NCBI GenBank assembly: GCA_963816185.1 | Contig: CAWFJJ010000024.1 | Location: 448,001 to 512,000 of the forward strand | Reading direction: 5' to 3' | Length of the DNA stretch: 64,000 nucleotides | Origin: Thermoanaerobaculia bacterium | GTDB taxonomy: Bacteria; Acidobacteriota; Thermoanaerobaculia; UBA5066 | Part shown: piece by piece, positions 17,523 through 62,537 of the stretch | How the letters are laid out: each line of letters starts with the position of its first letter | Position numbering within the stretch: position 1 is the stretch's first letter | Notes under the pieces: generated by a model | Database searches by the model: none | What the model saw: the letters and a program-made list of their open reading frames with translations, nothing else | What the model was told of the DNA's origin: nothing | Position numbers and translations under genes: made by a program

Positions 17523-17579
17523 CGCGTTGCCTGCTGGCGTCCCGGCTTGTGTTGCGGCGTCTCTTCTTAGAAGGTGAAT

Positions 17580-18428
17580 ATGGCCGAGGCGAAGGTGGGC
17601 GCCGCACGCATCGAGATTCCGGCGGCCCAGCGAGGGTCATTCGAAGAAATGCTCTTCGAAGGAATGGGCGAGCTCCAGTTCTCCTCGACCGTAGCGCCGG
17701 ATGGGCGGCTCCTCCTCTGGGTGAACTCGTCGGACGCGGCGACCGCGCTGGCGCAACTCGCCGCACTCGGCGCTCGCGGCCTTTCCACTTTCGAAGAAGA
17801 ATCCACCGACTGGGTCGCCGAGTCCGCGGCCTTGAGGAAAGCCGTTTTCGTCGACCGCTATCTCTTCGACCCGCACGAAGGGTCGCTCGCCACCGTCCCA
17901 CCTCCCGGCGTTCGCAGGCTCTTTCTTCCCGCGGTCCGCGCTTTCGGGACCGGCTCGCACGAGTCCACGCGGCTCGCCGTGCGACTCCTTCTCTCGGAGG
18001 ACCTGCGCGGCACGCGCGTCCTCGACGTCGGCTGCGGCACCGGGACGCTGGCATTCGTGGCGGCGCTGGAAGGCGCGCGCCACGTCGTGGCCTTCGATGT
18101 GGACCCTGATGCCGCTTTCGCGACACGCGAGCAGGCGCGCGCGAACGGGATTCCGCGGGTGTCGGCGTTCGCCGGTCCCCTCGACGCGGTCCCGAACGGC
18201 GCCCGATTCGACGTCGTCGTCGCGAACATGATCCACGAGGAGATCGAACCTCTCCTCCCCGCGCTCCGTGTCCACCTCGCACGCGCGGGTCGGCTTCTTT
18301 GCTCCGGGCAGCTCGGCGAGCGGAGAGGGGAGTGGGAGGATTTGCTTCGCAAAGAAGGCTTCCGGCAGATTCGCTCCATTCAGGAGAACGAATGGCTTGG
18401 GAGTGCGTGGGTTTCTTCGAATGAGTGA
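17580..18428 (+). CDS. prmA: Ribosomal protein L11 methyltransferase
   Basis: AFGTGSHESTRL, VLDVGCGTG.LA, FDVVVANM; follows dnaJ; start may be GTG 17574. Confidence 0.88.
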   Translation: MAEAKVGAARIEIPAAQRGSFEEMLFEGMGELQFSSTVAPDGRLLLWVNSSDAATALAQLAALGARGLSTFEEESTDWVAESAALRKAVFVDRYLFDPHEGSLATVPPPGVRRLFLPAVRAFGTGSHESTRLAVRLLLSEDLRGTRVLDVGCGTGTLAFVAALEGARHVVAFDVDPDAAFATREQARANGIPRVSAFAGPLDAVPNGARFDVVVANMIHEEIEPLLPALRVHLARAGRLLCSGQLGERRGEWEDLLRKEGFRQIRSIQENEWLGSAWVSSNE

Positions 18429-19344
18429 GAACGCCCCCTCGCGTCCGCCGCGCGTCTACGTGCCCGATCTGGCGGAGCAGCGGGTGGAGTCCGAAGAGAG
18501 ACCGGAGAAAGAGATTTCTCTTAGAAAGGAAGAAAGAGACCACGTTCGCTCGAGGAGGCTGAGGGATGGCGACGAGGTCATCGCGCTCGACGGAAAGGGC
18601 GCCAGGGCGCTGGCCGTGCTCGCGAAGGGCGGCAGTGCCATCGCCCTCTTACCTTCTAAGAAGATCTTGTCTCCCTCTTCCTCCTCGTCCTCGGCCGCGG
18701 CCTCATCTCACTCATCACACCTGCCCGGCGAGCCCGCGAACCGCGTGATTGTCGCCCTCGCGTGCGCGGAGCCGGCGCGAATCGAATGGGCCATCGAGAA
18801 GGGCACCGAGTGCGGCGCGGTGGGCTTCGTCCTCCTCGCGTGCGAGCGCTCGCAGAAGGGCCACGTAGCGGCGCTCTCGTCGCCCGCCCGTCTCGAACGC
18901 CTGCGCCGGATCGCCGTCGAGGCGACGAAGCAGTGCGACCGGACGATCGTACCTTTCGTGGAGGGTCCGAAGAGCCCGGAAGAGTTTCTTAGAAGCGGAA
19001 GAGAGATGGGCTCTTTCCGCCTCCTAGTCGCAGACCCTTCGGGAACCGCGATCGAGAACTGGCCGGTGCCCTCTCGACGCACGCGCGTGCTGTCTGAGCG
19101 AAGCGAGTTCACGCGCGAAGGAGAGGGGGCTCCGGCCGGACGAGATCGCCAAACATCGGGTCCCGGGCCGCTCCTCGGCGCGGAAGAGACTGTGATCGCT
19201 ATAGGCCCAGAGGGCGGGTTCACTCCGGCTGAAATACTCCTATTCGAAGAAAAAGGCGCTCTTCGGACCTCACTCGGCGCACGCGTCCTCCGCCTGGAGA
19301 CGGCCGTGGTCGTGGCGCTCGCTCGGTTGGTCGATCCCCTTTGA
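18421..19344 (+). CDS. rsmE: 16S rRNA m3U1498 methyltransferase RsmE, with non-homologous in-frame insertions
   Basis: H...R.RL..GD.V...DG.G, EKGTECG, EATKQC.R, IGPEGGFT..E, SLG.RVLRLETA; follows prmA. Confidence 0.92.
   Translation: MSENAPSRPPRVYVPDLAEQRVESEERPEKEISLRKEERDHVRSRRLRDGDEVIALDGKGARALAVLAKGGSAIALLPSKKILSPSSSSSSAAASSHSSHLPGEPANRVIVALACAEPARIEWAIEKGTECGAVGFVLLACERSQKGHVAALSSPARLERLRRIAVEATKQCDRTIVPFVEGPKSPEEFLRSGREMGSFRLLVADPSGTAIENWPVPSRRTRVLSERSEFTREGEGAPAGRDRQTSGPGPLLGAEETVIAIGPEGGFTPAEILLFEEKGALRTSLGARVLRLETAVVVALARLVDPL
19061..19137. repeat. Palindromic repeat, family A, inserted in frame in rsmE
   Basis: 19075-19123 is the exact reverse complement of 32422-32470 (49 bp); closed by ggccgg...ccggcc arms. 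Confidence 0.88.
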
Positions 19345-19408
19345 ATCCGTTCCCGATCACACGACTTGTTTCGGTTAGGATTCCGACAGAGCGGCGACGG
19401 AGGGCTTC

Positions 19409-20356
19409 ATGAGCTTCGAAGACGTCAAGAAGGTCTGGATGAACGGGAAGATGGTGGACTTCGCCGACGCGAAGATCTCCATCTTCACGCACGCCCTTCA
19501 CTACGGATCCGGCGTCTTCGAGGGGGAGCGCTGCTACGACACGGCCCGCGGATCGGCGATCTTCCGGCTCGAGGAGCATCTCGACCGGCTCTTCTGGTCC
19601 GCGAAGATCTATCGCATGGTCATCCCGTACACGCTCGACGAGCTCCGCGAGGCGACGCTCGAGGTCGTACGCGCGAACGGATTCAAGGCCTGCTATATCC
19701 GTCCGCTCGTCTATCGCGGGTACGGCTCGCTCGGAGTCAATCCGTTCCCGAATCCGGTGGACGTCGCGATCGGGTGCTATCCGTGGGGCAAGTACCTCGG
19801 CGCGGACGCGATCGAGCAGGGCGTCGACGTCTGCTGCTCGTCCTGGATGCGCATCGCACCGAACACGATGCCGGCGATGGCGAAGGCCACGGCGAACTAC
19901 GCGAACAGCCAGCTCATCAAGATGGAGGCCATCACGAACGGCTACCACGAGGGGATCGCGATGGACCACAACGGGCGCATCTCCGAAGGGTCCGGCGAGA
20001 ATCTCTTCCTCGTGTGGAAAGGCCGCCTCTACACGCCGCCTCTTTCGGCCTCGACGCTCCCGGGCATCACGCGCCTCTCGGTCATCCAGCTCGCCCGCGA
20101 GCTCGATTTCCAGATGGAAGAGAAGACGATTCCGCGCGAGATGATTTACGCGGCCGACGAGATGTTCTTCACGGGCACGGCCGCTGAAATCACCCCGATC
20201 CGCTCCGTAGACCGGATCCCGGTCGGAAACGGCAAGCGCGGCCCCATGACGGAGGCCCTGCAGAAGGCCTTCTTCGACATCGTCGAGGGCAAGGTCGACG
20301 ACCGCTACGGCTGGCTGACGCCGGTGCAAGCGCCGGTGGCGGCGGGCGTGCGGTAG
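19409..20356 (+). CDS. ilvE: Branched-chain amino acid aminotransferase
   Basis: THALHYG.GVFEG, YIRPL, AKATANYANSQL, EGSGENLF, LPGITR, FFTGTAAEITP. Confidence 0.97.
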   Translation: MSFEDVKKVWMNGKMVDFADAKISIFTHALHYGSGVFEGERCYDTARGSAIFRLEEHLDRLFWSAKIYRMVIPYTLDELREATLEVVRANGFKACYIRPLVYRGYGSLGVNPFPNPVDVAIGCYPWGKYLGADAIEQGVDVCCSSWMRIAPNTMPAMAKATANYANSQLIKMEAITNGYHEGIAMDHNGRISEGSGENLFLVWKGRLYTPPLSASTLPGITRLSVIQLARELDFQMEEKTIPREMIYAADEMFFTGTAAEITPIRSVDRIPVGNGKRGPMTEALQKAFFDIVEGKVDDRYGWLTPVQAPVAAGVR

Positions 20357-20368
20357 CCCGAGGCAACG

Positions 20369-21157
20369 TCAGAGCGCGCCCTGAGGCTTGCGCCGGGTCG
20401 CAATCAGCTCGGCCATGATCGCGATCGCGATCTCCTCGGGGGACTCCGCTCCGATCTCGAGGCCGACGGGGCACTGCGCGCGATTCAGCTCGGCCTCGGT
20501 GAAGCCCTCGGCGCGTAGCTCGTCGAAAAGGGCCTTTCGCTTCGCCTTGCTGCCGATCATCCCCAGGTACGCGAGCGGGACCCCGCGCAGGCGCCGGAAC
20601 GCCCGTCCGTCCGTCACGTGGCCGCGCGAGACGAGGGCGACCGAATCGCGCGGAGCGGGAACGGGCAGATCCGAGTAGTCGTCCTTCACCTGTACGAGCC
20701 GCACTCCCGCGGGGAATGCCCGCGGTTCGAGCTGCTGGGACCTTTCATCGGCCACCGTCACGTCCCAACCCGTGAAGGAGGCGGCGCGCGCAAGAGCGCG
20801 GCCGCAGTGGCCGGCGCCGACGACGAGGAGATGCGGCGCGCGCTCGACGATCTCGAGAAGAACGGTTGCGGTCCCGCCGCAGACCGCGCCGAAGGAGTTC
20901 TCTCCCGTCGGCACGAAGTTGTAGTCACGGGTGAAAGGGAGCCCGTGGGAGTCGAGGAGCTTTCGCGCGTCGGCGACGACGAGCGACTCGAACTTCCCGC
21001 CGCCGATCGTCCCAACGGTCGAGCCGTCCGGGAGGACGAGCATGCGGGCCGTGGTTTCGCGTGGGGTGGATCCGACGGCGGAGACGACCGTCGCCATCGC
21101 GAGGCGCCCATGCAGCTCGAGAAGTTGCGGAAGTTCGTTGAAGATTCGATGACTCAT
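20369..21157 (-). CDS. xdhC: XdhC/CoxI family molybdoenzyme maturation factor
   Basis: GSTPR, GTIGGG..E, CGG, VGAGH, YLGMIGS..K, PVGL.IGA.SPEEIA. Confidence 0.92.
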   Translation of the reverse strand: MSHRIFNELPQLLELHGRLAMATVVSAVGSTPRETTARMLVLPDGSTVGTIGGGKFESLVVADARKLLDSHGLPFTRDYNFVPTGENSFGAVCGGTATVLLEIVERAPHLLVVGAGHCGRALARAASFTGWDVTVADERSQQLEPRAFPAGVRLVQVKDDYSDLPVPAPRDSVALVSRGHVTDGRAFRRLRGVPLAYLGMIGSKAKRKALFDELRAEGFTEAELNRAQCPVGLEIGAESPEEIAIAIMAELIATRRKPQGAL

Positions 21158-21180
21158 AAAGAGAAAGATGAATAAGGAGC

Positions 21181-21927
21181 TTAGAAGGAGGGAGAGCGAG
21201 GGCGTCGTAGGCCCTCAACCAAATCGTCAGGACGATCGACGTCCCGGAGGATCGACTCGTCGAACCCTTCGAGGCAGTGGACCGTGACGTCCGGCTCGTC
21301 GAAGATCTGGTTGAGCCGTGCGGAGTCGGGCCACGAGAGGAGACGCGAGCGCAGTGCCGCGGGAATCAGGAGCGGGTGGCCGCGGCGCCCCGCGTGCGTG
21401 GGGACGACGAGGCTCGACCCTCCCGCGTCGAGTGCCGCCGCCGCTGAAAGTATGGTTCGAAGAGATTCTCTGCTTAGAAAGGGAAGATCGGCGGGGGAGA
21501 TCGCGACGTGCGTCGAGTGGGCGGCCGTCGCGGCCAGGCCCGCTTTCACAGAGGAAAACATTCCCACCTCCCAGCGGGGATTCTGGACGAACCGGGGAGT
21601 GAGCGGCCGAGAGGGCGTTGTCAAGGGTCTTCGACCGCTGCGCGGCGCGCGGAGCGCGCCCTTGACAACGCCCTTTCGGCCACCAGGTTTTCCTATATCG
21701 GCGGCTGCATCAGCAGCCGCCGCATATGAGAAATCTCCGATTTTCTCTTGGATCTCTTCTGCATCCTTCCCAAGAACCACGAGCAGCTCGTCGAACCCGG
21801 ATGCGAGCCATGTCTCCAGCACCCTCCGAAGCAAAGGCTTTCTGTCCTTGCCCATCGGGGCGAGCATCTTCGAAGATCCGAAGCGCGTCGAGGCACCGGC
21901 CGCGAGAAGGACTCCGGAGACGAACAG
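21181..21927 (-). CDS. MocA/MobA-like molybdenum cofactor nucleotidyltransferase; probable CTG start; carries an in-frame repeat insertion
   Basis: GVLLAAGASTRFG..K lies in frame upstream of ATG 21867; N..W..GMFSSVKAGL, PADLP, G.RGHP, DVD.PDD. Confidence 0.85.
   Translation of the reverse strand: MFVSGVLLAAGASTRFGSSKMLAPMGKDRKPLLRRVLETWLASGFDELLVVLGKDAEEIQEKIGDFSYAAAADAAADIGKPGGRKGVVKGALRAPRSGRRPLTTPSRPLTPRFVQNPRWEVGMFSSVKAGLAATAAHSTHVAISPADLPFLSRESLRTILSAAAALDAGGSSLVVPTHAGRRGHPLLIPAALRSRLLSWPDSARLNQIFDEPDVTVHCLEGFDESILRDVDRPDDLVEGLRRPRSPSF
21605..21733. repeat. Composite palindromic repeat (hairpins B and C) inserted in frame in the mocA-like gene
   Basis: 21619-21666 matches 61913-61960 at 46/48; 21698-21727 is identical to 61992-62021 (30 bp). 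Confidence 0.9.
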
Positions 21928-21961
21928 CTCGATCTCGCTCTTCTCGGCCGCCTGCCGTCCG

Positions 21962-23202: not shown

Positions 23203-25565
23203 GATTTCACCTCGACCTTCGCCGGCATCCCGGCGCGGAGCGGCCCGGCGATCGTGGGCGCGGCAGCCAGCACGCGCGCCGGCGTGATCGGCAGGTCGGT
23301 GATGCGGCTCCCGATCGCGTGGGAGACGGCGTTCGCGATGGCCGCGGCGGTCGGGACGATCGCTGGCTCGCCGATCCCCCTGGCGTGCGCATTGTTCTTG
23401 CCGGCGAAGAGGTCGAGGACGATCGTCACGACCTCGGGAACGTCCTTCGCGCCCAGAATCTTGTACTGCTCGATGTTCGGGTTCATGAAGCGGCCGGTCA
23501 AAACGTCGATGACGCGCTCCTCGAAGAGCGCATAGCTGACGCCTTGGAGCACGCCGCCCCGGATCTGGCTCTCGACGCCCGTTCTCCACACGGGGAGGCC
23601 GCACGTATGCGCCGCGGCGACCTTTTCGACCCGCACGACGCCCGTCTCGACGTCCACGACCACCTCCGCGAACTGCGCCCCTAAGAGCCGCGAATCGGCG
23701 CCGTCGTAGTCGGGAGCGCGGTCGCCGGTCGCGAGGATCGACTCTCCGCTCATCCTCGAGCAGACCTTTGCCCACTCGGCCGTCTTGCCGTTTGCGCGGA
23801 ATGCGCCGCCTTCGAGCTTCACGTCTTCCGGTCTCGCCCCGAGGAGCGGGGCCGCGATCTCGGCCATCTTCCGCGCGGCATGGAACGCCGCCGCTCGGAC
23901 CGCGGGGATGAGAGAGGTCGTCGTCGTCGAGCCTCCGGAGGCGGGCCCGTAGGGGTACTTCGAGTTGCCGATGTGGACGGTCACGGCCTCGACGGGAAGA
24001 CCGAGCTCCTCGGCGGTCACGAGCCCGATCGCCGTGCGGATCCCGCCGCCGATCTCCTGGACCCCGTTCTCGACCTCGACGGCGCCGTCTTTGTGGATAC
24101 GAACCTGGACCTGCGAGCCCTTGTGGACGATCGTGTACCAGACGGCGGCGGCGCACCCGAGGCCGCGCCGGAGCGGAAGGCCCGCGGCCGCCGCGGCTTT
24201 GTTCGCCCGCGTGATCGCTTCGCGTCGCGACCAGCCGATGGCTTTCGCCGCGGCGTCCCATTCCGCGCGGCGAATCTCGGAAGGATCGTTCTGGTAGCGC
24301 ACGACGAGCGGATCCAGCCCGCAGGCTTCGGCCACCGCGTCGAGGGCGGTCTCCACGGCGAACGCGCCCTGCGGGTGGCCGGGAGCGCGCATCGCGCAGC
24401 CGGGGCCGAGGTGCGTGAAGACGTCCGACTCGTCGACCTTCACGTTTGGGAACCCGTACGCGTTCTTCGCGAATGAGCCCGTACCCGTCCCGGTCGCGAC
24501 GCCGGCCGTCCCGACGGAGGTGTACTGGACGGCGGTCACGGTCCCGTCTTTCTTGTAGCCGACCTTGACCGTGTTGATGGAGTCCGGACGGTTGCCGGCG
24601 GCGAGATGCTCTTCCTTTCGGTCGAGGATCAGCTTCACCGGCTTACCGGCCTTTTTCGCGAGCTGCGCCGCGAAGACGCCGTAGTCGCCGGCGCCGAACT
24701 TCGCGCCGAAGCCGCCGCCCACGTATTCCGCGACGACCTCCACCTTGTCTTTGGGAATCCCGAGGACCGTCGCGAGCTCGTCCTTGACCGTGAACGTGCC
24801 CTGCGTGGACGCGTACACCTTCAGGTTGTCGCCTTCCCACTCGGCGAAGAGCGAATGCGTTTCCATGGGGACATGCGTCTGCACCACGGTCGTCATCGTC
24901 AGCTCGAGCGTGGAGTCGGCTTCCGCGAAGCCCTTCGCCACGTCGCCTTTCCCGGACGTCTTCGGACCCCGCACGTTGCCGTGCTGAGGCACGGCGCCGC
25001 CCGCGGACGGCGCGTCGCCGGCCGTGCGCTTCTCCTGGACGGTCTTTTCGAAGACGAGGGGGGAACCCTCCTTCATCGCGTCCACGAGCCTGACGGTGTG
25101 CGGCTTGACGTCGTACTTCACGGCCACGGCGTGGAGGGCGTCGTCGGCGAGCTGCGGCGTCGCGGCCGCGAGCGCGAGGACCGCCTCGCCGTGATAACGA
25201 ACCTTCTTCTTGTCCGGCTTCACCCAGACGACGCCCATCGCGTCGAGCTTCGACGTGTCGATCGACACGATGTCGGCATGCGCGTAGGGCGAGCGCAGGA
25301 TGCGCCCATAGAGCATTCCGGGGCGGATGACGTCGTGCGTGTACGTGGCGCGGCCGGTCACCTTCTGGGGGCCGTCGAGGCGCGGGCGGCGCCGCCCGGT
25401 CAGCGGACGGTCGACCGTGTCGTAGGGAACCGGGTCGCCGGGAGGAAGAGAGATCTTCTTAGAAAGTGTATGGCCCGCGAGGCCTATCTGGACGATCGCC
25501 TCGGTGCCCGTTGTGTCGGGCACCTTCGCAGAAATCTTCTCCTGGGGGTTCCTCTCATCAGCCAC
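23199..25565 (-). CDS. Xanthine dehydrogenase family molybdopterin-binding subunit (YagR/PaoC-like)
   Basis: RLDG..KVTG.A.Y, H.PME, VGGGFGAK, MRAPG.PQ, SGGS, QI.GG..QG, RGIGEP. Confidence 0.95.
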   Translation of the reverse strand: MADERNPQEKISAKVPDTTGTEAIVQIGLAGHTLSKKISLPPGDPVPYDTVDRPLTGRRRPRLDGPQKVTGRATYTHDVIRPGMLYGRILRSPYAHADIVSIDTSKLDAMGVVWVKPDKKKVRYHGEAVLALAAATPQLADDALHAVAVKYDVKPHTVRLVDAMKEGSPLVFEKTVQEKRTAGDAPSAGGAVPQHGNVRGPKTSGKGDVAKGFAEADSTLELTMTTVVQTHVPMETHSLFAEWEGDNLKVYASTQGTFTVKDELATVLGIPKDKVEVVAEYVGGGFGAKFGAGDYGVFAAQLAKKAGKPVKLILDRKEEHLAAGNRPDSINTVKVGYKKDGTVTAVQYTSVGTAGVATGTGTGSFAKNAYGFPNVKVDESDVFTHLGPGCAMRAPGHPQGAFAVETALDAVAEACGLDPLVVRYQNDPSEIRRAEWDAAAKAIGWSRREAITRANKAAAAAGLPLRRGLGCAAAVWYTIVHKGSQVQVRIHKDGAVEVENGVQEIGGGIRTAIGLVTAEELGLPVEAVTVHIGNSKYPYGPASGGSTTTTSLIPAVRAAAFHAARKMAEIAAPLLGARPEDVKLEGGAFRANGKTAEWAKVCSRMSGESILATGDRAPDYDGADSRLLGAQFAEVVVDVETGVVRVEKVAAAHTCGLPVWRTGVESQIRGGVLQGVSYALFEERVIDVLTGRFMNPNIEQYKILGAKDVPEVVTIVLDLFAGKNNAHARGIGEPAIVPTAAAIANAVSHAIGSRITDLPITPARVLAAAPTIAGPLRAGMPAKVEVKS

Positions 25566-27528: not shown

Positions 27529-30326
27529 ATGACGACTGCTGACGGCTGGACCTCGCGCAGGGTCCGCGAGACGTTCCTGTCCTTCTTCGAGGAGAAGGGC
27601 CACACGCGTGTGGCGTCCTCCTCGCTCGTGCCCGCCGAGGACCCGACGCTGCTCTTCACGAACGCGGGCATGAACCAGTTCAAGGACCTTTTCCTCGGGC
27701 GGGAGAAGCGCGCGTACGTTCGGGCGACCTCGTCGCAGAAGTGCGTGCGCGCGGGCGGGAAGCACAACGACCTCGACAACGTGGGCTACACCGCGCGGCA
27801 CCACACGTTCTTCGAGATGCTCGGAAACTTCTCCTTCGGCGATTACTTCAAGAGGGAGGCGATCGACTACGCATGGGAGCTCGTGACGTCGAACGCGTTC
27901 TACGGGCTCGACCCGTCGCGCCTCTGGGCGACGGTCTATACGGAAGACGACGAGGCGGCCGAGCTGTGGGGGCGCTACCTCCCGAAGGCGCGCATCGCCC
28001 GCTTCGGCGAGAAGGACAACTTCTGGTCGATGGGCGACACGGGGCCGTGCGGCCCGTGCAGCGAGATCCACTACGACCAGGGCGAGGGAGTGCCCGGCGA
28101 CGCGACGCCGAACGGCACCGGCGACCGCGTCATGGAGATCTGGAATCTCGTCTTCATGCAGTTCGACCGCGACGCCTCGGGAAAGATGACCCCGCTGCCG
28201 AAACCGAGCGTCGACACGGGCGCCGGCCTCGAGCGCATCACGGCGATCCTCGAGGGCAAGAACAACAACTACGACACGGACCTCTTCGCGCCGATCATCA
28301 AGAAGATCGAGGAGATCTCGGGTCAGAAATACGTCGGCGGCATGGCCGTCGAAGATGCGCCGTTCCGCGTGATTGCAGATCACGCGCGAGCGGCGACGAT
28401 GCTCATCGCGGACGGTGTGATCCCTTCGAATGAGGGAAGGGGATACGTCCTGCGCCGGATCATCCGGCGCGCCATTCGATATGGAAGAAGACTCGGCCTC
28501 GTCGATCCTTTCCTCTTCAAGCTCGTGCCGGGGGTAACGGAGGCTCTGAAGATTTTCTTCGAAGGTGAAGAGATTCGCGGCGCAAAGGCGATGTTTGGCC
28601 TGATCGACGAAGAGGAAGGCCCGATCGGCGCAGAAGAAGTTCGTTTTGCGAAAACGATGACGGCCGGTGCCGACCGCGTTGGCGAAGCGATTTCCGACGT
28701 GCGACGGCGGGGCGAGACATCGCTTTCAGGCGCCGCAGCGTTCCGCCTCTACGACACGCACGGCGTTCCTCTCGAGCTCATCGAAGAAATCTCTTCTGAC
28801 GAAGGGGTTCAAGTCGACCGGTCCGGCTTCGACGTCGAGCTCGAGAGGGCCCGCGAGCGGAGCAAGGGAGCCTCGAAGTTCGAGCACGAAGGAGGCCTGC
28901 CGGCCGACGAGCAGATCGACGCTTCATGGGCGACCGAATTCCGCGGATATCCCGAGCAGGATTTCGTGCGGCTGTAGGCGCGAAAGTGCTCGGTCCTGCT
29001 TTCTAGCGGAGCGCGGCGAGAGGGTGGATTTTCTTAAAGTGGGGAGAAGGGCTGGTGCGTCACGGACCGCACCGTCTTCTATCCGGAGGGCGGCGGTCAG
29101 GTGGCCGACCAGGGAGAGATTCTCTGGTTTGCCGAGAGCGGGGGCGACGGGCGCGCGGACGGTCATCGACGCGCGGCGCGCCCCGAATGGGAAGTCCGTC
29201 CTACACCTTCTAAGAATCTCCAGCGGTTCCCTTGCGGTGGGTCAACTCGTGCGTATGAAGCGTGGACGAATGGACCCGCCGCAAGACGCAGGCAAACCAT
29301 ACCGGGACTCACCTCCTCCACGCCGCGCTGCGGAAGGTGCTCGGCGAAAGCGTTCGGCAGATGGGCTCGCTCGTCGCGCCCGACCGCCTGCGCTTCGACT
29401 ACGCGGCCTCGCGCCCGACGACCGCCACCGAAGTCCGTGAGATCGAGCGACTCGTGAACGAGGAGATCCTGCGGGACCGCGAGGTCGGCAAGGCCGTCAT
29501 GTCGATGGACGACGCGAAGAAGAAGGGCGCGATGATGTTCTTCGGCGAGAAATACGGCGAGCAGGTCCGCGTCGTCGACGTGCCGGGATTCTCGACGGAG
29601 CTCTGCGGCGGCTGCCACGTCGGCCGTACGGGCGAGATCGGCGCCTTCAAGGTGATCTCCGACAAGGGCCTCGCGGCCGGCGTCCGACGAATGGAGGCGG
29701 TCACCTCGTTGAATGCGGTCGAAAGGCTCCAGAAGGACGAAGAAATCCTGGCGAATATGGCGCAGACGGCGAACGTCCCTCCCGACGAGCTGCCGGCGAA
29801 GCTGAAGGAGGCGCTGGATTCTCTTAGAAGGAAAGAGAAGGAGATCGCCGCCCTCAAACGCGACCTCGCGCTGGCTGGCATAGGTGCGGGCGCCGGCCCC
29901 TCGAGCGCGCAGCCGGGCGCGGCGCCTTCTGTACATTCACCTTCTAAGAAATCCTCCTCTTCGGACGCAGCGGCTGAGGAGGGCCTGCACGAGATCAACG
30001 GCATCAAGGTCCTCGCACGCCGCGTGCCGTCGCTCCCGACGAACGAGCTCCGTAACCTCGCGGACACGTTCCGGAGCAAGCTGAAGTCGGGCGTCGTGCT
30101 GCTCGGAACCGAGCTCGAAGGCAAGGTCACGCTGCTCGCGGCGGTCACGTCGGACCTCGTAGCCCGGGTCTCCGCGAACGAGCTGGCTCAGGTCATGGCA
30201 CCGGCCGTCGGGGGCAGGGGCGGCGGAAGGCCGGACCTCGCCCAGGCCGGCGGCAAAGACGCGGCCCAGATCGAGCCGGCTCTCGCGCTGGGCGTCGCGA
30301 AGGTGCGAGAGAGGCTTTCCGCCTGA
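27529..30326 (+). CDS. alaS: Alanine--tRNA ligase, interrupted by several frameshifts at about 28970-29265 (probably sequence errors)
   Basis: [43 protein letters not shown]; FY.EGGGQV.D.G; [35 protein letters not shown] spread over three frames. Confidence 0.95.
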
Positions 30327-32406: not shown

Positions 32407-32485
32407 GGCCGGTGTGCCCTCCTCCTTCGCGCGTGAACTCGCTTCGCTCAGACAGCACGCGCGTGCGTCGGAAGGTACATCGGCC
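32407..32485. repeat. Palindromic repeat, family A, intergenic between convergent genes
   Basis: 49 bp core identical in reverse complement to 19075-19123; ggccg...cggcc arms. Confidence 0.88.
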
Positions 32486-43447: not shown

Positions 43448-44843
43448 ATGAAAGGGGAAGAGCGGGAGCGCGAATCGCCGGGCGGCCGCAACGCGACTCC
43501 GCAGCGCTCGGCGCTCTCCGTCGGGTTCATCGGTCCCCTCCCGCCCACACGCTCCGGCATCGCCGACTACGACGCCGAAATCCTCTCTTCCCTTTCTAAG
43601 AATTCTTCTCTTTCGGTCTCTTCGTATGAACCGGCCGACGCAGCCGCCGCGCTGAAGGCGAAGCACCACGTCCTTCTCTTCGAGATCGGCAACGACCCGA
43701 TGCACGCGCCGTCGGTCGAGGCGCTCTTCGATCCCGGGCGCCGGACTCCCGCCGTGGTCGTTCTGCACGAGTTCGTTCTCCACCACCTTTTCGCAGCGGC
43801 TTATCTGACGCGCTCCCGGCCGGAGGACTACGCGCGCGAGCTCGAGCGGGCTCACGGCGCACGGGGAAGAGCCTTTGCTGCGACGCGGCAAAACGGCTCC
43901 TTCGTCCCCGTCTGGGACCTCGACCCGTGGCTCTACCCGATGTCCGCCGGGGTGATTCGCGCCGCCGAGGCGGTGGTCTCGCACTCGGCGCTCGTGACCG
44001 GTGCGGTGCTCGCCGAGTGCCCGGGCACCCGCGCCCTCACGATCCCTCAGCACGTCGCGCCCGCCCCAAGGACGCCGCTCCTCGAAGCACGCGAAGCGCT
44101 CGGTTTTCCGCAGGGACCGGCCGGCGGGCATCACGCTCGGCATCGTGTCGCCCGCAAAACGCATCGGAAAGATCCTCGAGGCCCTCGCAACGCTCCCGCC
44201 CGACCGCCGGCCGTTCTTCTTCATCGGAGGATCGGTGGCCGAAGACGACGTCCTCCGTTCCATGGTGCGGGAGAGCGGCCTCGATGGGGACGTGAAGTTC
44301 GGCGGCTATCTCTCGGAGGAGGACCTCTGGCGGGCGGCCTCGGCATCGACGTTCGCCGTGAACCTCCGCCACCCCACGATGGGGGAGACGTCTCACGCCG
44401 TGTGCCGTCTCGCGGGCTTCGGCCTGCCGCTCGTCGTCTCCGACACAGGCTGGTTTCGCGAGCTCCCCGACTCGTTCGCCGACAAGATCCCGATCGGGGG
44501 AGACGAGGTCGCGGATCTCGCACGGGTCATGGAGCGCCTCGCGTTCGAGCCCGACCTCGCCCGCGAGCGGGGCCGCGCGGCATCCGAGTGGGGAGTGCCT
44601 CGGCGGCCCGAGCGCATCGCGGAAGCCTACCGGGTAGTGCTCGAAGAGGCGGCCATGGGTTGGTCGCGGCCTCGCGGCATGTCGGGGCGCGTGGCCGAAG
44701 CGCTCGCGCGCCTGGGTGTTGGACAGAGGGGAATGCACGGCGCCACGAGCCGCATGCCCGACGGGATCCTCTTGGCGGAGGTCGCGTCGCGTGCGACGGG
44801 TATCCTGCCGAGGGTGATGGAGAGAGAAAGGGATTTTGCCTAG
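43448..44843 (+). CDS. Glycosyltransferase family 4, frameshifted near 44110
   Basis: PLPP.RSGIADY, IGN...H, VVLHE.VLHH in ORF 43448; G.V.P.KR, NLR.PTMGETS, PLVVSD.GWF.ELP in ORF 44001. Confidence 0.85.
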
Positions 44844-44891
44844 GAAGAGGAGAGAATTTCTTAGAAGGGAACAGGGCCTGCGGCGCGCTCG

Positions 44892-45875
44892 TCACATTGG
44901 AAACCGGCTGCGCAAATCGATCCGCAGCAGGACATCCGGAGCCACCGCGAGGGCGGCCTCGATTTCCTTTCTAAGAAATCCTAAATTGATCCCTCCCTCG
45001 TCATCCCCGAATTGATCGAGCTTTGCTTTCGCGAGCGCCAAGAGGCGCTTCGCCGGCTCGGCATTGCCGCGCTCGATGTGTACGCATGCCGCCGCGAGCT
45101 GGATGAGAGCCTGCAGAAAGACCTTGTCTTCGCCTTTGCTTTCCTTCCAGAGCAGCTCCCACTCTTCGTGGGCCTCGAAGAAGCGCCCGGCCCGGAAATC
45201 CGTGACTCCTTTCCCGAAGTCCGGCGACGCGGCGCCTCCGAACCGCGCGGGGGTCTCGGGGACGACGGAGATCGGCGCGAGGAAACCGCGCGCGAGGAGC
45301 TCCGTCGCCAGGAGGTCGGGGTCCGTCACGACGAAGCCGTCGATGCCGAGCTTCCGCGCGGCGTCGATGAGGTCCGCGCGGTCGTCGGCGTAGAGAGCAT
45401 CCTCTCGCCGCGCTCCGGATAGTGCGAGAGCCGCGTCGTAGTGCGCGGGATCGGGCTTGGCGACGCCGACCTCGAAAGACAGCGCCCTGAGAGGGACGAG
45501 ACGCGGCAGCTCCGGCGCGACGCGGAGGACGCCTTCCCAGTGGAGAGCGTTCGTGTTGGAGACGAGCACGGGCACGACGTCGGGCTCGAGGCGGCTCAGC
45601 GCGGCGAGAGCCGTAGGGACCGCGATGAAGATGTCGCGCCAGGCCGGGATCCAGACGTCGTCGTCGAGCCGGGGTATCCCGGCGGCGCGCTCGGCGGCGC
45701 GAAAGAAAGCGCGCGCCGTGATTCGTCCGAGACCGAATTCGTGCTCGAGCGCGCCGAAGAGGTGCGGGCGAAGGGTCTCGAAAGGCAGGCCGGCGGCCGC
45801 CTCGATCCGCCGGAGCGTCAGGTCGTGATCGAACCGGATGAGAACGTTGCCGAGGTCGACGAGGAGGGCTCGCAG
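44892..45875 (-). CDS. HAD-family phosphatase fused to a DUF309 domain; probable CTG start
   Basis: LLVDLGNVL (motif I, upstream of GTG 45575), SNTN..H, S.E.G..KPD...Y, DD; C-terminal F..G.FFEAHE.WE..W, Q.LIQ.AA...H..RGN. Confidence 0.82.
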   Translation of the reverse strand: MRALLVDLGNVLIRFDHDLTLRRIEAAAGLPFETLRPHLFGALEHEFGLGRITARAFFRAAERAAGIPRLDDDVWIPAWRDIFIAVPTALAALSRLEPDVVPVLVSNTNALHWEGVLRVAPELPRLVPLRALSFEVGVAKPDPAHYDAALALSGARREDALYADDRADLIDAARKLGIDGFVVTDPDLLATELLARGFLAPISVVPETPARFGGAASPDFGKGVTDFRAGRFFEAHEEWELLWKESKGEDKVFLQALIQLAAACVHIERGNAEPAKRLLALAKAKLDQFGDDEGGINLGFLRKEIEAALAVAPDVLLRIDLRSRFPM

Positions 45876-49398: not shown

Positions 49399-50145
49399 GT
49401 GCGGTTCGACATCGTCACTCTCTTCCCCGGTTACTTCGCGTCTCCGCTCGGGGAGTCTCTCGTGGGGCGCGCTTTGGAAACGGGGATCCTGGACGTCCAT
49501 CTCGTCGATCTTCGCGATTTCTCGGACGACCCCCATCGCAAGGTGGACGACGAGCCTTACGGAGGCGGGCCGGGGATGGTCCTCACCGCCCCTCCTGTCT
49601 TCGCGGCGGTCGAGGCTCTCAGGGCCGAGGAGAGCGCGCCGCCGCACGTCGTCCTCCTGTCGCCCCAGGGCCGGCGCTTCGACACGAGGTCCGCCCGGGA
49701 GCTCGCCGCGCGGCCGCGCGTCGCCCTCGTCTGCGGCCGCTACGAAGGGATCGACGAGCGGACGCGCGTCGCCGGCCTTTTCGACGGGGAGATTTCTCTC
49801 GGAGACTTCGTCCTTTCCGGAGGTGAAGCCGCCGCGCTCACGATCCTCGAAGCCGTATCCCGCTATCTCCCCGGTGTGGTCCAGGACGCCGCGAGCGTAT
49901 CGGCGGACAGCTTCGAAGACGGGCTGCTCGACTATCCGCATTACAGCCGCCCGCGGTCGTTCCGAGGGCTCGACGTGCCGGAGGTGCTGCTCTCCGGCCA
50001 CCACGAGGAGATCCGGAGGTGGCGCCGCGTAGAGCAGCTTCGCGCTACCTTCGAAAGGCGCCCGGACCTCCTTTGCGAGGCTCGGCTCGACGACGAGGAA
50101 AGAGCACTCCTGGAGAGACTTGCGAGAGAGCGGCGCTCGCCTTAG
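49399..50145 (+). CDS. trmD: tRNA (guanine37-N1)-methyltransferase
   Basis: VDD.PYGGGPGMV, LSPQG, CGRYEGIDER, SLGDFVLSGGE, LLDYPHY.RP. Confidence 0.97.
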   Translation: MRFDIVTLFPGYFASPLGESLVGRALETGILDVHLVDLRDFSDDPHRKVDDEPYGGGPGMVLTAPPVFAAVEALRAEESAPPHVVLLSPQGRRFDTRSARELAARPRVALVCGRYEGIDERTRVAGLFDGEISLGDFVLSGGEAAALTILEAVSRYLPGVVQDAASVSADSFEDGLLDYPHYSRPRSFRGLDVPEVLLSGHHEEIRRWRRVEQLRATFERRPDLLCEARLDDEERALLERLARERRSP

Positions 50146-50238
50146 AATCGCGTCTCACGGGTGAACGGTTTTCTTGGGGTGCCGGTCGAAGTGTCCCCGA
50201 GTGTTTCGTCCCGTCACCACGATTTTGGAGGTTCCGCG

Positions 50239-51328: not shown

Positions 51329-51335
51329 GGCGATC

Positions 51336-54437: not shown

Positions 54438-54465
54438 GGCGCGGCCGGCTCTCCTGAGATCCGCC

Positions 54466-58212: not shown

Positions 58213-58958
58213 GCGACGAATCTCCGGCCGCCCCTGCGACTGAGGCCCCGATCTCGCCCGTGTCCGCGGTCGTCGGGACGTTTTCGCGCCCTTCCGAGAC
58301 CTTCCGGCGGCTCGTCGCCCGGCCCACGTGGTGGCTGCCTCTCGCGCTGATCGTCGTTTCCACCGCGGCCTCTTGGTTCGCCGTAGCCCCCAAGATGGAC
58401 ATGGACCGCACGATTCGCGAGTCCATCGAGAAGAGGGCCGAGAAGACCGGGCGCACCATTCCGCCGGAGGCCGTCAACCGGCAGGTCGAGATGTCCACGA
58501 AGCTGATGCCGGTGTTCTTCGGCGTGGCTCTGGCCGGAAGCGCGGCCTTTCTCTTCCTCTCTGCACTCGTTTTCTGGGGCTCCGCGAAGGCGATGGGTGC
58601 CGAGGCTCGCTACACGCAGCTCCTTTCGATCTGGGGTCACGCCGGCCTTCCAAACGTGCTCGGGGCCCTCCTCGCGATTCCGATCTTTCTGCAGCTCCCC
58701 GACACCTCGTTGACTCAGGAGGGTGCTGCCCAGGTCGTCAAGTCGAACGTGGGAGCCTTCCTAGACCCGTCCGCACCCGCTCCTCTCAGGACGCTCGCCG
58801 GCTCGCTCGACGTCTTTTCGCTGGCCGCCCTCTTTCTCCTCGTGCTCGGCTTCCGCCGGTTGCCGGGCCTCTCGAGAGGCGCTGCGACGGCGACTCCGAT
58901 CGTCCTCTGGCTCGTCTACGTGATCGGTAAAGTCGCGTGGCGCGCGGTGTTTGGCTGA
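58209..58958 (+). CDS. Yip1 family (YknW-like) membrane protein
   Basis: F..P.ETF..L...P.WW.PL and about five TM segments; GTGA overlap with the tolC-like gene. Confidence 0.8.
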
Positions 58959-59706
58959 GACCGCCATGCTGATCGAGATGGTGGACATCGAGAAGACGTA
59001 CACGGTGGGCGAGGAGAAGGTCCGCGCGCTCCGGGGCGTCACGTTCTCGATCGACCGCGGCGAGTACGTCGCGATCATGGGACCGTCGGGGTCCGGCAAG
59101 TCCACGCTCATGAATCTGATCGGGTGCCTCGACACGCCCACGGGCGGCGTCTACAAGCTGAACGGAGCGCCGGTGCAGGAGATGACCGACGACGGGCTCG
59201 CGCGAATCCGCAACCGGGAAATCGGTTTCGTCTTCCAGACGTTCAACCTCCTGGCCCGCACGAGCGCTCTCGCCCAGGTGGAGCTGCCGCTCGTGTATGC
59301 GGGACTCTCAAAAAAGGAGCGTCGCGAGCGCGCGGAGAAAGCGCTCGCGCACGTGAGCCTCTCCGACCGCGCGCACCACAACCCGAACGAGCTGTCGGGC
59401 GGGCAGCGCCAGCGTGTCGCGATCGCGCGCGCCCTCGTGACCGGTCCGTCGCTCCTCCTCGCGGACGAGCCGACTGGAAATCTGGACTCGGCGACGGGCG
59501 AGGAGATCATGCGGCTCTTCCGCGAGCTCAACGAGCAGGGGAACGCGATCATCATCGTGACGCACGAAGAAGACATCGCAGCTCACGCGCGGCGCATCAT
59601 CCGCATCCGCGACGGCCGGATCTCGGACGACCGTCCGAACGATTCCAGCCGCGCCGAGGCGGTCGCGCGGGCGAAGCGGGCAGCTCTGGAGGCGGCGTCG
59701 GTCTGA
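58951..59706 (+). CDS. MacB/LolD-type ABC transporter ATPase
   Basis: [56 protein letters not shown]. Confidence 0.95.
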
Positions 59707-59736
59707 GTTCGAGAGCGCATCTGACAAACTCCGCGC

Positions 59737-60605
59737 GTGGTCGCCGACGTCCTCGCGCTCGTTCTCCTTCAGCTCGCCGTCGGCCTCGCGATCTGCAATC
59801 TCCTGACGCCGTCGAAGGATCTGTCGGGCGGATTCTTCGCCCTGCACGGACTGATCGGTTGCTTTGCGCTTTGCCTGTCGTGGCTCGTTTCGGGACGCGC
59901 TGGTTTTCTGCTTAGAAGGGAAGAGGGGGAAGCCGCGCGCGGCGCGGCCGCAGCTCTCGGGGCTCAGCCGTGGTTCGCTGCGGCGCTTTTCGCCGTTGCC
60001 CTCGCGACGCTGGTTGCCCATACACTTCTCGCTCGGGCAGGCTCCGGCGCCCCTCTTGCCCTTTCTAAGAATTTCTCTTCGTCTCGACCTGCTGTGGTGT
60101 CGCTCTCCTTTTGTCGCGCGTGCGCGTGGAACCATTCGCCTCCCTCCCCGGCATCGGCCCCGCCTGGCTCGCCGCCGGGCTTCTCCTCGGCGCCCTGCTC
60201 TTCGGCGCCGTCGTGTGGGCGATGAATCTCGGGCACTGGTATCTCGTCTCGACGTCGTTGCCGTTCGGCCTCCTCGTGCGCGCGACGGAGGCCTTCGCGT
60301 GCCTCGTGCTGCTGCGGGCGGTCTTCGCCGTCGTGGCGCTCGGCCTCGTGGCGCGGGCCTCGGCGGGCGACGGGGGAGAGGCGCTCGCAGGGCTCGTCGA
60401 TCCGATGCGCGACGGCTTCTTCTTCTGGTCGCGCGTGACGTGGGGCCTCCTCGCGCCCCTCCTCCTCGCGCCGTTCGTCGTGAAGACCGCGCGCATGAAA
60501 TCGAATCAGGCCGCCACGGGGCTCCTCTACGTGGGTCTCGTGTTCGTGCTCGTCGGCGAGGTCCTCGCCGCCTACCTCACGCGGCGTTCGGGACTTCCCG
60601 TCTGA
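59737..60605 (+). CDS. Multi-pass membrane protein (hypothetical), frameshifted near 60080-60110
   Basis: Hydrophobic N-terminal half in ORF 59737; AM.LGHWYL and NQ.ATGLLYV..V.V..GE in ORF 60111. Confidence 0.7.
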
Positions 60606-61765
60606 GCGCGGGCCGCGGCGCCGGAAGCGTGAGCGAGAGCGCCGCGGCGAGGATTGGCAGCGCCGCCAGGACCGGAAAGACGGATCCGACGCCCTGGCTG
60701 ATCGGCGAGGGCGCCGAGCAGAGGAACGCCCGCGCCTCCGACGCCGATCGCGAGCCCCATCGTGACGCCTCCGGCGATGCCCTCGCGTCCCGGCAGGTAT
60801 TCCTGGCCCATCACGACCGCCACGCTGTACGTCGCCACCGTGCCTGCGCCCAGGAGGACGAGGCTCGCGAGGCCTGCGATCCCCGGCCTGTGGAGAAAGA
60901 AGGCGAGAAGGGGTGCGAGCGGGAGGAGCGAGCCCACGAGAACCGCGCGGCGGCCGAAGCGGTCCGCGAGCCGACCTCCTGCCAGCGTCGCGGCCGCACC
61001 GGCGAGGAGCATCGCGGTCACGGCGAGAGCGGCTCGTTCTTTCGGGATGCCGCGAACCTTCACGAGATAGAGAGGGACGAAAGAGACGAGCCCGAACGCG
61101 AAAAGGGAGCGAACCGCGATGACGACGGAGAGGCGTGCGAAGGGTCCCCATCGAGGCGGGAGGGGCTCGCGACGGGCGACCGAGCGTGAGACTTCGGGCC
61201 GCAGGACGCGGAGGCGCGGCAGCTCGCGGGCGAGGAGCGCCGCCATGAGGCACGCCGGCACGGCCATCCAGACGATGCGCGCGACGCCTCCGGAACCCGC
61301 GAGAAGCGAGATCGCGACCGGCCCGAGCGCGATTCCGAGATTTCCGCCCACGGAAAACACGCTCATTCCCGTCGCGCGGCTCTCGCCGGACGCATAGTTC
61401 GCGTAGCGCGCGCTCTCGGGGTGGAAGGCCGCGACGCCCGCGCCTGAGAGAAGGATCGCGGCGATCGTCGCGTTGTAGCCCGTGACGACGCCGGCGAGCG
61501 CGAGGCCGCAGCCCGCGGCGAGAACCGCGAGGGGGATGAGGAAAGGGAGAGGCCGGCGGTCGGAGAGGTGCCCGAGGACCGGCTGGACGAGCGACGAGAG
61601 CAGCGTCGCGGCGAGGACGACGCCTCCCGCCGCCGTGTACGAGAGGCCGCGCTCGGCGATGAGAAAGGGCAGCAGCGCCGGCACGGCGCCCTGGTTCATG
61701 TCGTTGACGACGTGGCCGGCGGCGAGCCAGCCGAGGGCGCGGCGGACGATCGGGCGGTTCGCCAT
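60577..61765 (-). CDS. MFS transporter, fosmidomycin-resistance (Fsr) type, frameshifted near 60697
   Basis: H..NDM.Q..VPALLP, SS..QP..G..SDR, FHPE, MS.F.VGGN.G.A.GP, GG.LADRFGR; last TM helix is in the shifted frame. Confidence 0.88.
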
Positions 61766-61852
61766 GAGCTGGGCAATGGTAAGAGACAGAGAGGGAGAGA
61801 AGAAGATCTTCTTAGAAAGATCAAGAGGGGACCGAAGAGAAGATTTCGGATT

Positions 61853-62021
61853 GTTCCTATATGCGGCGGCCGCAGTTGCGGCCGCCGGCAATAGGAACTC
61901 CCGGATGTCCGGTGTCAAGGGTCTTCGACCGCTACGCGGCGCGCGTAGCGCGCCCTTGACTCCGGACATCCGGGGAGCACGTTTACCGCCGTCGGCGGCT
62001 GCATCAGCAGCCGCCGCATAT
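61853..62021. repeat. Composite palindromic repeat (C-like, B, C hairpins) in the divergent intergenic region
   Basis: gttcctat..gcggccgca-gt-tgcggccgc..ataggaac; ccggatgtccgg-gtcaaggg...cccttgac-ccggacatccgg; cggcggctgc-atca-gcagccgccg; cores shared with 21605-21733. Confidence 0.9.
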
Positions 62022-62063
62022 AAGAAGAAATCTCCTCCTCCTCGTTCCACGTATCCTCGATTC

Positions 62064-62537
62064 GTGCGCGTCTCTGTCTACTGCTCCGACTGCCTCGCCC
62101 GCATCGAGGTTCCGCCGCCCCAGGAGACGCCCAGCGGCTCTGTCTCTTGCCCTTCTAAGCATTCCCCGATTTCCTTTTCCCATTCCGAAGCCGTCAAGGC
62201 CGGATCGCGGGTGGATGTCTGCTCTCGCTGTTCCTCCAGTGCGCTCTTCGGCCAGAAGGACTTCGACCAGCGCCTCGGCTGCGCGATCCTCGCCGCTGGC
62301 GCAGCGGTCGCCCTGGGCGTGTCGTGGCGTTTCGGCGGGATCTGGTTCGTGCCGGTGCTCCTCGCCGTCGCGGCAGCAGATTTCGTTCTCGCGCGCCGGG
62401 TCGCGCCCGTCGTCATCTGCTACCGATGCGACACGGAGTACCGGGGCGCCGCCGATGCTTCCGCCGCGCGGCCCTACGACCCGCACATCGCGGAGCGGTT
62501 CGCCGAGGTGAAGACCGTGAGGCGCATGAACCCCTGA
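62064..62537 (+). CDS. Zn-ribbon membrane protein (hypothetical)
   Basis: CxxC, CPxxH, CxxC, QKDF.Q.LG, two TM helices, CYRC...YR. Confidence 0.75.
   Translation: MRVSVYCSDCLARIEVPPPQETPSGSVSCPSKHSPISFSHSEAVKAGSRVDVCSRCSSSALFGQKDFDQRLGCAILAAGAAVALGVSWRFGGIWFVPVLLAVAAADFVLARRVAPVVICYRCDTEYRGAADASAARPYDPHIAERFAEVKTVRRMNP

Follow-up and report, generated by a model that had tools for sequence, protein, structure and literature searches.

The stretch of DNA examined here, hereafter the window, comprises 64,000 nucleotides of a Thermoanaerobaculia bacterium and corresponds to positions 448001-512000 of contig C24 in assembly G000 (5.09 Mb, 30 contigs, 67% GC). Among the genes carried by the window are those for a PrmA-like methyltransferase, RsmE, a MobA-like protein, AlaS, a DUF309-containing protein, a membrane protein, and an MFS transporter. 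Within and between these genes one DNA word is repeated, of which the heptamer CTTAGAA (TTCTAAG on the opposite strand) forms the core. A single copy of the word is referred to as an arm, and the plus orientation is that of the strand reading CTTAGAA. The arms in the window are listed in Table 1, together with two hairpin repeats found in the interior of arm pairs.

Table 1. Arms and hairpin repeats in the window
Feature	Position	Strand	Location and remarks
Arm TTCTTAGAA	17564..17572	+	Start of PrmA-like methyltransferase gene
Partner arm, C variant, TTCGAAGAA on + strand	17640..17648	-	76 nt from 17564; first ~25 codons of PrmA-like gene
C-variant arm TTCTTCGAA	18413..18421	+	Junction of prmA-like stop and rsmE start; kept in 11/15 genus orthologs
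Arm CTCTTAGAA	18518..18526	+	rsmE; encodes ISLRK, aligned to outgroup residues without insertion
Partner arm TTCTAAGAA on + strand	18654..18662	-	rsmE; followed by pyrimidine run encoding poly-Ser
Arm preceded by CCGAAGAG..GAAGAG	18986..18994	+	rsmE; recognisable in 16/16 aligned genus sequences
Partner arm, C variant	19243..19251	-	rsmE; interior 18994-19243 contains hairpin repeat B
Hairpin repeat family B	19066..19132		In frame in pair interior, rsmE; second window copy at 32417-32475
Arm-like copy AGCTTAGAA	21178..21186	+	Complement holds TAA stop of MobA-like gene (- strand)
Arm-like copy TGCTTAGAA	21471..21479	+	Purine-run flanks; antisense within MobA-like gene
Unpaired arm	25456..25464	+	Antisense, 5' part of 789-aa gene; independent contig identical
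Arm damaged in this assembly TTTCTTAAAG	29030..29041	+	alaS; genus orthologs read TCTTAGAA or TTCTTCGAA
Partner arm	29208..29216	-	alaS; exact heptamer in 12/19 genus orthologs
Arm	29821..29829	+	C-terminal half of alaS; exact heptamer in 18/19 orthologs
Partner arm	29942..29950	-	alaS, 121 nt on; followed by Ser-rich pyrimidine run; kept in 13/19 orthologs
Arm	43594..43602	-	Long purine run on own strand; no partner within 400 nt at up to one mismatch
Arm	44858..44866	+	Gap between convergent genes
Partner arm	44969..44977	-	111 nt on; 3' end of DUF309-containing gene
Heptamer without flank consensus	50141..50147	+	Probably a chance copy
Arm	59909..59917	+	Membrane-protein gene; heptamer kept in 12/13 orthologs
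Partner arm	60063..60071	-	Membrane-protein gene; kept in 12/13 orthologs
Arm	61809..61817	+	Divergent intergenic region, 46 nt from MFS transporter start (- strand)
Hairpin repeat family A	61845..62030		Pair interior; related copy at 21616-21732
Partner arm TTCTAAGCA	62153..62161	-	344 nt from partner

Consensus and abundance of the word

A total of 18 copies of the heptamer were counted in the window, compared with a mean of 1.13 in 100 dinucleotide-preserving shuffles, none of which reached 18 (maximum 4). The coordinates and strands of all 18 had been given in an earlier sequence-only reading of the window and are exact. In the whole assembly, CTTAGAA was found 449 times, where base composition predicts 137. 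It lies at the core of an asymmetric word, 30-45 bp long, which reads purine run, RAT, TTCTT(A/C)GAA, and then GG(T/G)GAAT or AAGAGGGG. The inner flank takes two forms, GGTGAAT(G)GGG or GG(G/T)AAGAGGGG, and GGRAAGAGGGG behind TTCTT(A/C)GAA was observed as an alternative inner ending. When the 449 copies were aligned, T was found at positions -3, -2, and -1 of the heptamer in 67, 86, and 82%, position +1 was R in 91%, and position +2 was G in 86%; purines made up 70-90% of the flanks over some 20 nt 5' and some 12 nt 3' of the heptamer. The flank consensus drawn earlier from the window is thus valid over all the genomic copies. The outer flank is enriched in GAAGAG/AAGAGA, with a peak at about 15 nt from the word.

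The 9-mer TTCTTAGAA is present in 337 genomic copies and its C variant TTCTTCGAA in 287, where 3.7 and 7.5, respectively, are expected by composition, corresponding to one 9-mer every 15 kb, or every 8 kb when the C variant is included. A genome-wide count against a Markov model, a codon-aware form of which had been proposed in the sequence-only reading as a check, gave 239 observed and 1.0 expected copies of TTTCTTAGAA at order 3, an excess of about 250-fold. No unrelated 10-mer was in more than about 6-fold excess under the same model, and TTTCTTAGAA is therefore the signature word of this genome. The copies in called genes use all four stop-free frames (66 and 67 copies in sense, 35 and 76 in antisense), and in three of these four usable frames the arm supplies the rare codons UUA, AGA, or CUA. 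Codon or dipeptide usage as the cause of the excess is ruled out by the order-3 Markov model and by the use of four frames. In the profile centred on the word, the GC content falls to 0.41-0.51 from a background of 0.68-0.69, which bears out the dip claimed from the window, and is 0.71 just inside the word.

The first 17.5 kb of the window is free of CTTAGAA, as had been stated, no copy preceding 17566, but arms of the C variant (TTCTTCGAA/TTCGAAGAA) are located at 1585/1768 and 6631. A-rich purine runs (at least 18 purines in 20) number 1,682 in G000, six times as many as in random sequence, and 17% of them adjoin an arm; their density is even among the large contigs, at 27-43 per 100 kb. In abstract-level literature searches, the matches listed for the 9-mer were primers or unrelated genes, those listed for Thermoanaerobaculia repeats included no such word, and those for DNA uptake sequences in Acidobacteria were on Neisseria only, with none on this word.

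Inverted pairs, lineage, and conservation

The sites were caught in the sequence-only reading, but the main structural fact, that they are arms of inverted pairs, was not. Among neighbouring copies within 600 bp, the arrangement +- was found 87 times, -+ 8 times, ++ 16 times, and -- 14 times. With a partner defined by at most one mismatch to TTC[T/G]AAGAA, an inverted partner was located 29-300 nt away on the inner (GGTGAAT) side of 256 of the 337 TTCTTAGAA arms (76%, about three quarters) and on the outer side of 48, the background being 7%; with the limit set at 400 nt, 266 arms are paired and 71 single. The pair unit consists of purine run, RAT, TTCTTAGAA, GGTGAAT, interior, ATTCACC, TTCTAAGAA, ATY, and pyrimidine run, and is identical when read from either strand. 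The relative orientation of the two arms is fixed and their spacing has a minimum: from start to start, the 137 pairs measured are rarely less than 65 bp apart, with a mode at 76 and a tail to 300, 10 of them being below 70 bp and 50 at 70-89. In a second species, G011, 400 kb contained 16 +- neighbours and none of the other arrangements, and 197 arm places were recognised on its 3.9-Mb contig.

Plus and minus copies are equal in number on every contig, and the unpaired arms do not correspond to GC skew (26/29 and 5/11), by which replication-strand polarity is ruled out. Chi and KOPS are likewise over-represented oligomers, read by a DNA-processing protein, but are skewed with the direction of replication. 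The unpaired arms show no bias with respect to gene direction either (20 sense, 15 antisense). The distribution of arms is patchy, with a variance of 7.3 against a mean of 2.8 per 32 kb and with 2.4-11.6 arms per 100 kb between large contigs.

The interiors of pairs, 60-300 bp of frequently coding DNA, are mutually unrelated, no position being conserved beyond about 12 nt from an arm, and those of short pairs showed no unusual structural stability (mean z -0.5). Beyond the core, shuffling the partners left their complementarity unchanged (z -0.2 and -1.4), and no correlation was found between partners at the variable A/C position (odds ratio 1.3 and 0.95; Fisher p 0.49 and 1.0). A selected RNA or DNA hairpin formed by the arms was rejected, the partners being without covariation, and recognition therefore takes place arm by arm. 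In a cluster of Ser/Thr protein kinase paralogs (G000 C24:602899-620980), TTCTTCGAA/TTCGAAGAA pairs are located exactly 93 nt apart, arise from codons for ..EFFE.. and ..SFEE.., and are each followed by a pyrimidine (Ser-rich) run. The TTCTTCGAA variant is in part ordinary coding sequence, as these look-alikes indicate, and the 93-nt pairs were left out of the spacing and covariation counts. Among the contigs of four sequencing runs, no joint of an arm with its partner was inverted or deleted, such contigs being blind to rare rearrangements and thus neutral on inversion or excision; the contig joints listed have short sides and are located away from arm pairs. None of 22 sequencing runs contains half of the words, the single RNA run containing 0.05.

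The lineage distribution was followed with the 12-mer TTTCTTAGAAGG, which is present in 149 copies in G000 and in 45-210 copies in all of 18 other genomes of the genus, where its reversed control is present in 0-3 copies. No copy was found in any of 12 genomes from two other families of the order, an absence that holds independently of genomes G019 and G024, both flagged as unpublished. In a class-wide sample of 121 genomes of Thermoanaerobaculia, 45-149 copies were counted in each of the nine genus genomes (G000 included), none in four genomes of four sister genera of the same family, and 0-2 in the remaining 108. The word is confined to one uncultured genus of Thermoanaerobaculia (soil Acidobacteriota), and owing to this sharp boundary the responsible gene should be findable by comparison with sister genera. 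Within the genus it was found in metagenome-assembled genomes (MAGs) from several studies and assemblers; its presence in every genus MAG searched and on independent contigs rules out an assembly or consensus artefact.

Ortholog alignments, another check proposed earlier, were made at the DNA level for rsmE (16 genus genomes), alaS (20), and the membrane-protein gene (15). In nearly every species the arms occupy matching orthologous positions, and their conservation exceeds that of the surrounding sequence. Ranked by 7-mer conservation, none of the 10 arms fell below the 83rd percentile; 7-18 of 13-19 species retain the exact heptamer, and for the other 7-mer positions the mean is 18-28%. Twelve of 13 species have both arms of the membrane-protein gene, with an interior between them that varies freely in sequence and length. 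The RsmE protein was also aligned with four outgroup proteins from other families, and here all four arms fell on shared residues, the alignment being ungapped at each of them (for example, ISLRKEE opposite LQLSREE/VSLAREE and EEFLRSG opposite ERVLEEE). Substitution, with the use of rare codons, and not insertion therefore gave rise to the arms. Extra with respect to the outgroup are the Ser-rich stretch beside the second arm and a 36-residue hairpin-repeat insert in G000. The purine and pyrimidine runs beside the arms differ in length between species, as does the poly-Ser run behind the 18654 arm, which is not found in outgroups. Repeat-associated low-complexity peptide stretches in conserved proteins, including housekeeping enzymes, are shared with the Rickettsia palindromic elements, but the latter are inserted copies, whereas the arms replace codons and only the flanking runs add residues. 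The use of four frames in both orientations, the orthologous conservation above local background, and the superposition on outgroup-shared RsmE residues altogether sustain the earlier view of a nucleic-acid-level signal laid over coding sequence, and across the genus the word is upheld by selection or drive.

With respect to called genes, approximately 68 of 132 pairs are located inside one gene, 20 on a boundary, and 44 in intergenic regions, of which 31 separate tandem, 10 divergent, and 3 convergent genes. Arms are somewhat more numerous in the first tenth of genes, 36 where a decile has about 22. At least 100 open codons follow the arm's TAG in 84 of 335 arms, compared with 19.7% of all TAGs, and an open frame of that length precedes it in 96 of 335, compared with 20.8%; the excess is only slight, and the word is at most marginally a gene-boundary signal. 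Between 17000 and 31000, a search for the sigma-70 consensus gave one promoter-like site, not at an arm; terminator-like sites numbered 11, compared with 8.2 in shuffles, and no arm pair made up any of them. With no consensus at the arms in this interval and only 3 of the 44 intergenic pairs between convergent genes, the arms were rejected as sigma-70 promoters or intrinsic terminators. At the PrmA-like gene, GAAGGTGA after the 17564 arm and the ATG at 17580 represent the ribosome site and start. About 45 genes genome-wide start 18-77 nt past the pyrimidine side of an arm (in the window also at 21157-21186 and 61765-61830), and their leaders are pyrimidine-rich and without a Shine-Dalgarno sequence; past the 21178 copy, a pyrimidine run is followed by the next start codon on the minus strand.

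The word had also been considered as a target of the hairpin repeats, and for this the support is partial. An arm was found within 150 nt at 22 of the 47 family A loci in G000, compared with 7% of random non-coding segments, and in 24 of 25 cases the arm had the repeat on its inner side. Family B, with 13 loci, had an arm nearby at six, and here the repeat lay on the inner side in eight of eight cases; the control for side preference gave 120 inner and 59 outer. A plus arm to the left combined with a minus arm to the right bracketed 9 of the 47 loci of family A and 4 of the 13 of family B, compared with 0.6% of random segments. Pair interiors are preferred sites for both of these mutually unrelated families. 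GC-rich palindromes (such as 61851-61887 and 61993-62029) make up the composite family A, which has no Rfam match at the gathering score, and copies of family B show 93% complementarity to one another. Four of 16 species carry family B in rsmE, always at one position within the pair and in one case inverted, and in G000 it accounts for the 36 added residues. The wide spacing of the 61809/62153 pair is due to the family A repeat inside it.

A putative docking site and its alternatives

We tentatively favour, as possible rather than probable, the explanation that the arms are docking sites of a genus-specific DNA-binding protein by which two arms are joined. The nucleoid-protein site listed among the suggestions of the sequence-only reading is thus retained as a putative assignment. 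Each arm would dock a predicted protein that is both genus-specific and sequence-specific, and two protein-bound arms would be joined by looping or bridging. Such joining may explain the fixed relative orientation and the lower limit of spacing (about 65 bp, with an optimum of about 76 bp), and also the attraction of mobile hairpin elements to the interior, which, if bent or exposed, could be a favoured target for both repeat families. The runs outside the arms expand and contract by slippage, adding Ser-rich or Glu/Lys-rich stretches to proteins. Candidate roles of the looping would be nucleoid architecture, regulation, or the marking of landing sites. In LacI-type looping, short loops of about 76 bp are favoured in vivo. 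The looping operators of LacI, AraC, and GalR and the bridging nucleoid proteins Lsr2, EspR, and GapR of high-GC bacteria share with the arm pairs a fixed relative orientation of two sites, a preferred spacing of about 70-80 bp with a tail to a few hundred bp, and AT-richer islets in a GC-rich genome. These systems have few sites or a loose AT preference, whereas hundreds of copies of one precise word, many of them intragenic, are present here.

Several observations weigh against docking and joining. No binding protein or genus-confined candidate gene emerged, no systematic search being possible. Tight protein loops often show a helical periodicity of spacing, and no clear periodicity was detected in a sample of only 137 pairs (highest power 7.9 across the many periods tried, falling to about 4 with the main spacing peak taken out). 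A single orientation with a minimum spacing can also come about without a loop: since the pair forms an inverted repeat, any transcript crossing it meets the purine arm before the pyrimidine arm, and the orientation bias is accommodated equally well by a rule acting on RNA. Unpaired arms make up about one in five (71 of 337). The link between hairpin repeats and arms comes in part from a shared preference for purine-run, non-coding contexts; 24% of all purine runs have an arm nearby, compared with 47% of the family A loci. Finally, the gene calls for G000 are crude and its runs are accompanied by single-base indels that break reading frames, so that the split into coding and non-coding given above is approximate.

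Of the alternatives, a DNA uptake or recombination signal maintained by molecular drive, in the manner of the uptake signal sequence (USS) of Haemophilus, the DNA uptake sequence (DUS) of Neisseria, and perhaps cyanobacterial HIP1, survives best and is still considered unlikely. Own-kind DNA carrying the word would be preferred, and the word would spread by substitution where proteins tolerate it. The pattern known for USS and DUS is indeed similar, with a short core of 9-12 nt, weaker asymmetric flanks, hundreds of copies equally on both strands, lineage specificity, an origin by substitution in coding DNA, in all open frames and in tolerant protein regions, and conservation at orthologous sites; furthermore, ComEC, DprA, and two secretins are encoded. 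Competence genes, however, proved nearly universal in controls, and their presence therefore says little. USS and DUS are found about once per kb, so that the present word is roughly ten times sparser, and uptake signals work singly, from which inverted pairing of three quarters of the arms at a minimum of about 65 bp, also inside genes, would not be predicted. The patchy distribution argues against this explanation as well, and the purine and pyrimidine runs outside the arms are a further difference. HIP1 is linked to transformation efficiency in one report (10.1101/2024.09.10.611283) and to gene transfer in another (PMC13756078), in which evolutionary conservation is also named. Two further reports describe HIP1 as hyper-abundant, 15- to 300-fold over-represented, and long without known function (PMC5861425, PMC4390886). 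The excess of the present word is of the same extreme kind, but HIP1 is a perfect 8-bp palindrome, a single site, and phylum-wide, whereas the word is paired, confined to one genus, and not a perfect palindrome, its core being TTCT-T-AGAA with asymmetric flanks and a preference for the purine strand.

An RNA-level signal, such as ribosome pausing at rare codons, an RNase entry site, or a mimic of the 16S rRNA 3' end, is rather unlikely on balance. Crossing transcripts would read the purine run and the Shine-Dalgarno-like UUAGAAGGUGA first and CACCUUCUAAGAAAUC with the pyrimidine run last, and the orientation rule is as this reading predicts. The inner flank GAAGGUGA is a true ribosome site at the PrmA-like gene, and the rare codons supplied by the arm, the enrichment in the first gene decile, and the arms 18-77 nt before start codons point in the same direction. 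In addition, when the minus arm plus outer flank, TTCTAAGAAATCTC, is anchored on the shared TTCTAAG, 12 of 14 bases agree with the 16S 3' end and the start of the spacer. The sequence at the 16S 3' end and spacer start (G000 C1:445540-445580) is CACCTCCTTTCTAAGGGATCTC, with TTCTAAGGGATCTC as the region of match. A conserved stem, however, is unsupported because the arms show no base-pair covariation, and a search of the window against Rfam at gathering scores gave no match. Unpaired arms ignore gene direction, pairs are located also in divergent promoter gaps (10 of 44 intergenic pairs), and the retention of the exact word in four frames exceeds what selection for rare codons needs.

The docking explanation has a bolder form, which is speculative and quite unlikely: the arm pairs may serve for synapsis by a DNA-binding protein that is peculiar to the genus and perhaps descended from a recombinase or transposase, and this protein would fold micro-loops of 60-300 bp chromosome-wide, essential genes included, as landing pads that channel hairpin-type mobile elements to tolerated places. 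If true, this would represent a host-encoded safe-harbour system overlaid on coding sequence.

A functionless by-product of biased mutation or repair, such as the short-patch nicking tied to a methyltransferase that has been proposed for HIP1, is improbable. Local mutagenesis is suggested by the AT-rich, low-complexity flanks, and the near-palindromic core contains CTNAG, or TTCGAA in the variant, both of them typical restriction-modification sites. In one report, HIP abundance is related to orphan methyltransferases (PMC4390886). Such a bias would nevertheless not yield asymmetric flanks over 30-45 bp, one orientation of pairs, or a minimum spacing.

Least probable is an origin of the arms as ends or relics of a mobile element (miniature inverted-repeat transposable element, MITE; REPIN; or inverted repeats of a transposon) or as binding sites of a transposase by which they are no longer mobilised, a mobile origin being already largely refuted: inverted ends in one arrangement, a size distribution resembling that of MITEs (lower limit 65-70 bp, tail to 300 bp), TA at the inner edge of the core, and the two hairpin-repeat families between arms above chance are in its favour, but interiors are unrelated and often encode conserved protein segments, arms lie on outgroup residues without insertion and are fixed at orthologous sites across the genus, no insertion sequence is bounded by arms (among 81 long candidates no arm-bounded segment of 0.6-3.5 kb is repeated, and only kinase paralogs match each other), the Y1/RAYT transposase (PF01797) gave no match in G000 and was found in two genomes out of 18 in the genus and eight out of 12 in the outgroup, and DDE_Tnp_1 was found in none of five other genus genomes. 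REPIN doublets are known for a characteristic spacing of about 70-110 bp and a less conserved middle and for hosting other insertions, and are thus similar to the arm pairs in spacing, variable middle, inverted arrangement, hundreds of copies, and insertions by other elements. REP sequences are, however, extragenic and hairpin-forming and are accompanied by a RAYT gene, whereas the arms are mostly intragenic, with at least 68 of 132 pairs in one called gene (rsmE, alaS, and the membrane-protein gene among them), form no hairpin by covariation, enclose unrelated interiors, and are found in a genome without RAYT; a REPIN was rejected on these grounds.

USS, DUS, Chi, KOPS, HIP1, and REP each opened a part of chromosome biology, and to our knowledge few genome-wide signal words are known outside model phyla. 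The word is filed here as a further case, the nearest ones, HIP1, USS/DUS, and REP/REPIN, being without widely spaced intragenic inverted pairs. Its features are not known to occur together elsewhere: an extreme excess, a sharp genus boundary, an inverted-pair grammar with a minimum spacing, an overlay on housekeeping residues at the cost of rare codons, and a link to hairpin repeats.

Assembly quality around the arms

Independent contigs showed 0-5 differences from the window at the 18520, 18654, 18988, and 25458 patches. The alaS region of the window (28975-29262; open reading frames 27529-28977 and 29262-30326) contains two in-frame stops and shifts, and the gene is open in 19 genus relatives. 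Independent contigs differ from the alaS of G000 by single bases at 29036, 29161, and 29258, and the broken gene most likely represents consensus indel errors rather than a pseudogene. In one independent contig, an extra G behind 29036 restores TTTCTTAGAAG, revealing a hidden copy at 29033. The membrane-protein gene (about 59736-60605) is split in G000, one base being missing from the pyrimidine run behind the 60063 arm, and is open in 14 relatives. The low-complexity flanks of the word are thus places of frame-breaking indels in this assembly.

The word should be usable as a diagnostic marker for binning and contamination checks of these MAGs. On contig C10 of G000, 1,028 A followed by 65 T (1147-2239) resemble an assembly or read artefact. 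Identical or nearly identical 70-nt arm contexts were found on two contigs each (C11:1139 and C1:149387, C14:41882 and C24:143238, and, nearly identical, C27:6233 and C25:162388). Since small and large contigs share these contexts, parts of the genome were seemingly assembled twice, as strain copies, and such double assembly fits both the size of G000, 5.09 Mb against 2.6-4.8 Mb in relatives, and its contamination figure of 3.4%.

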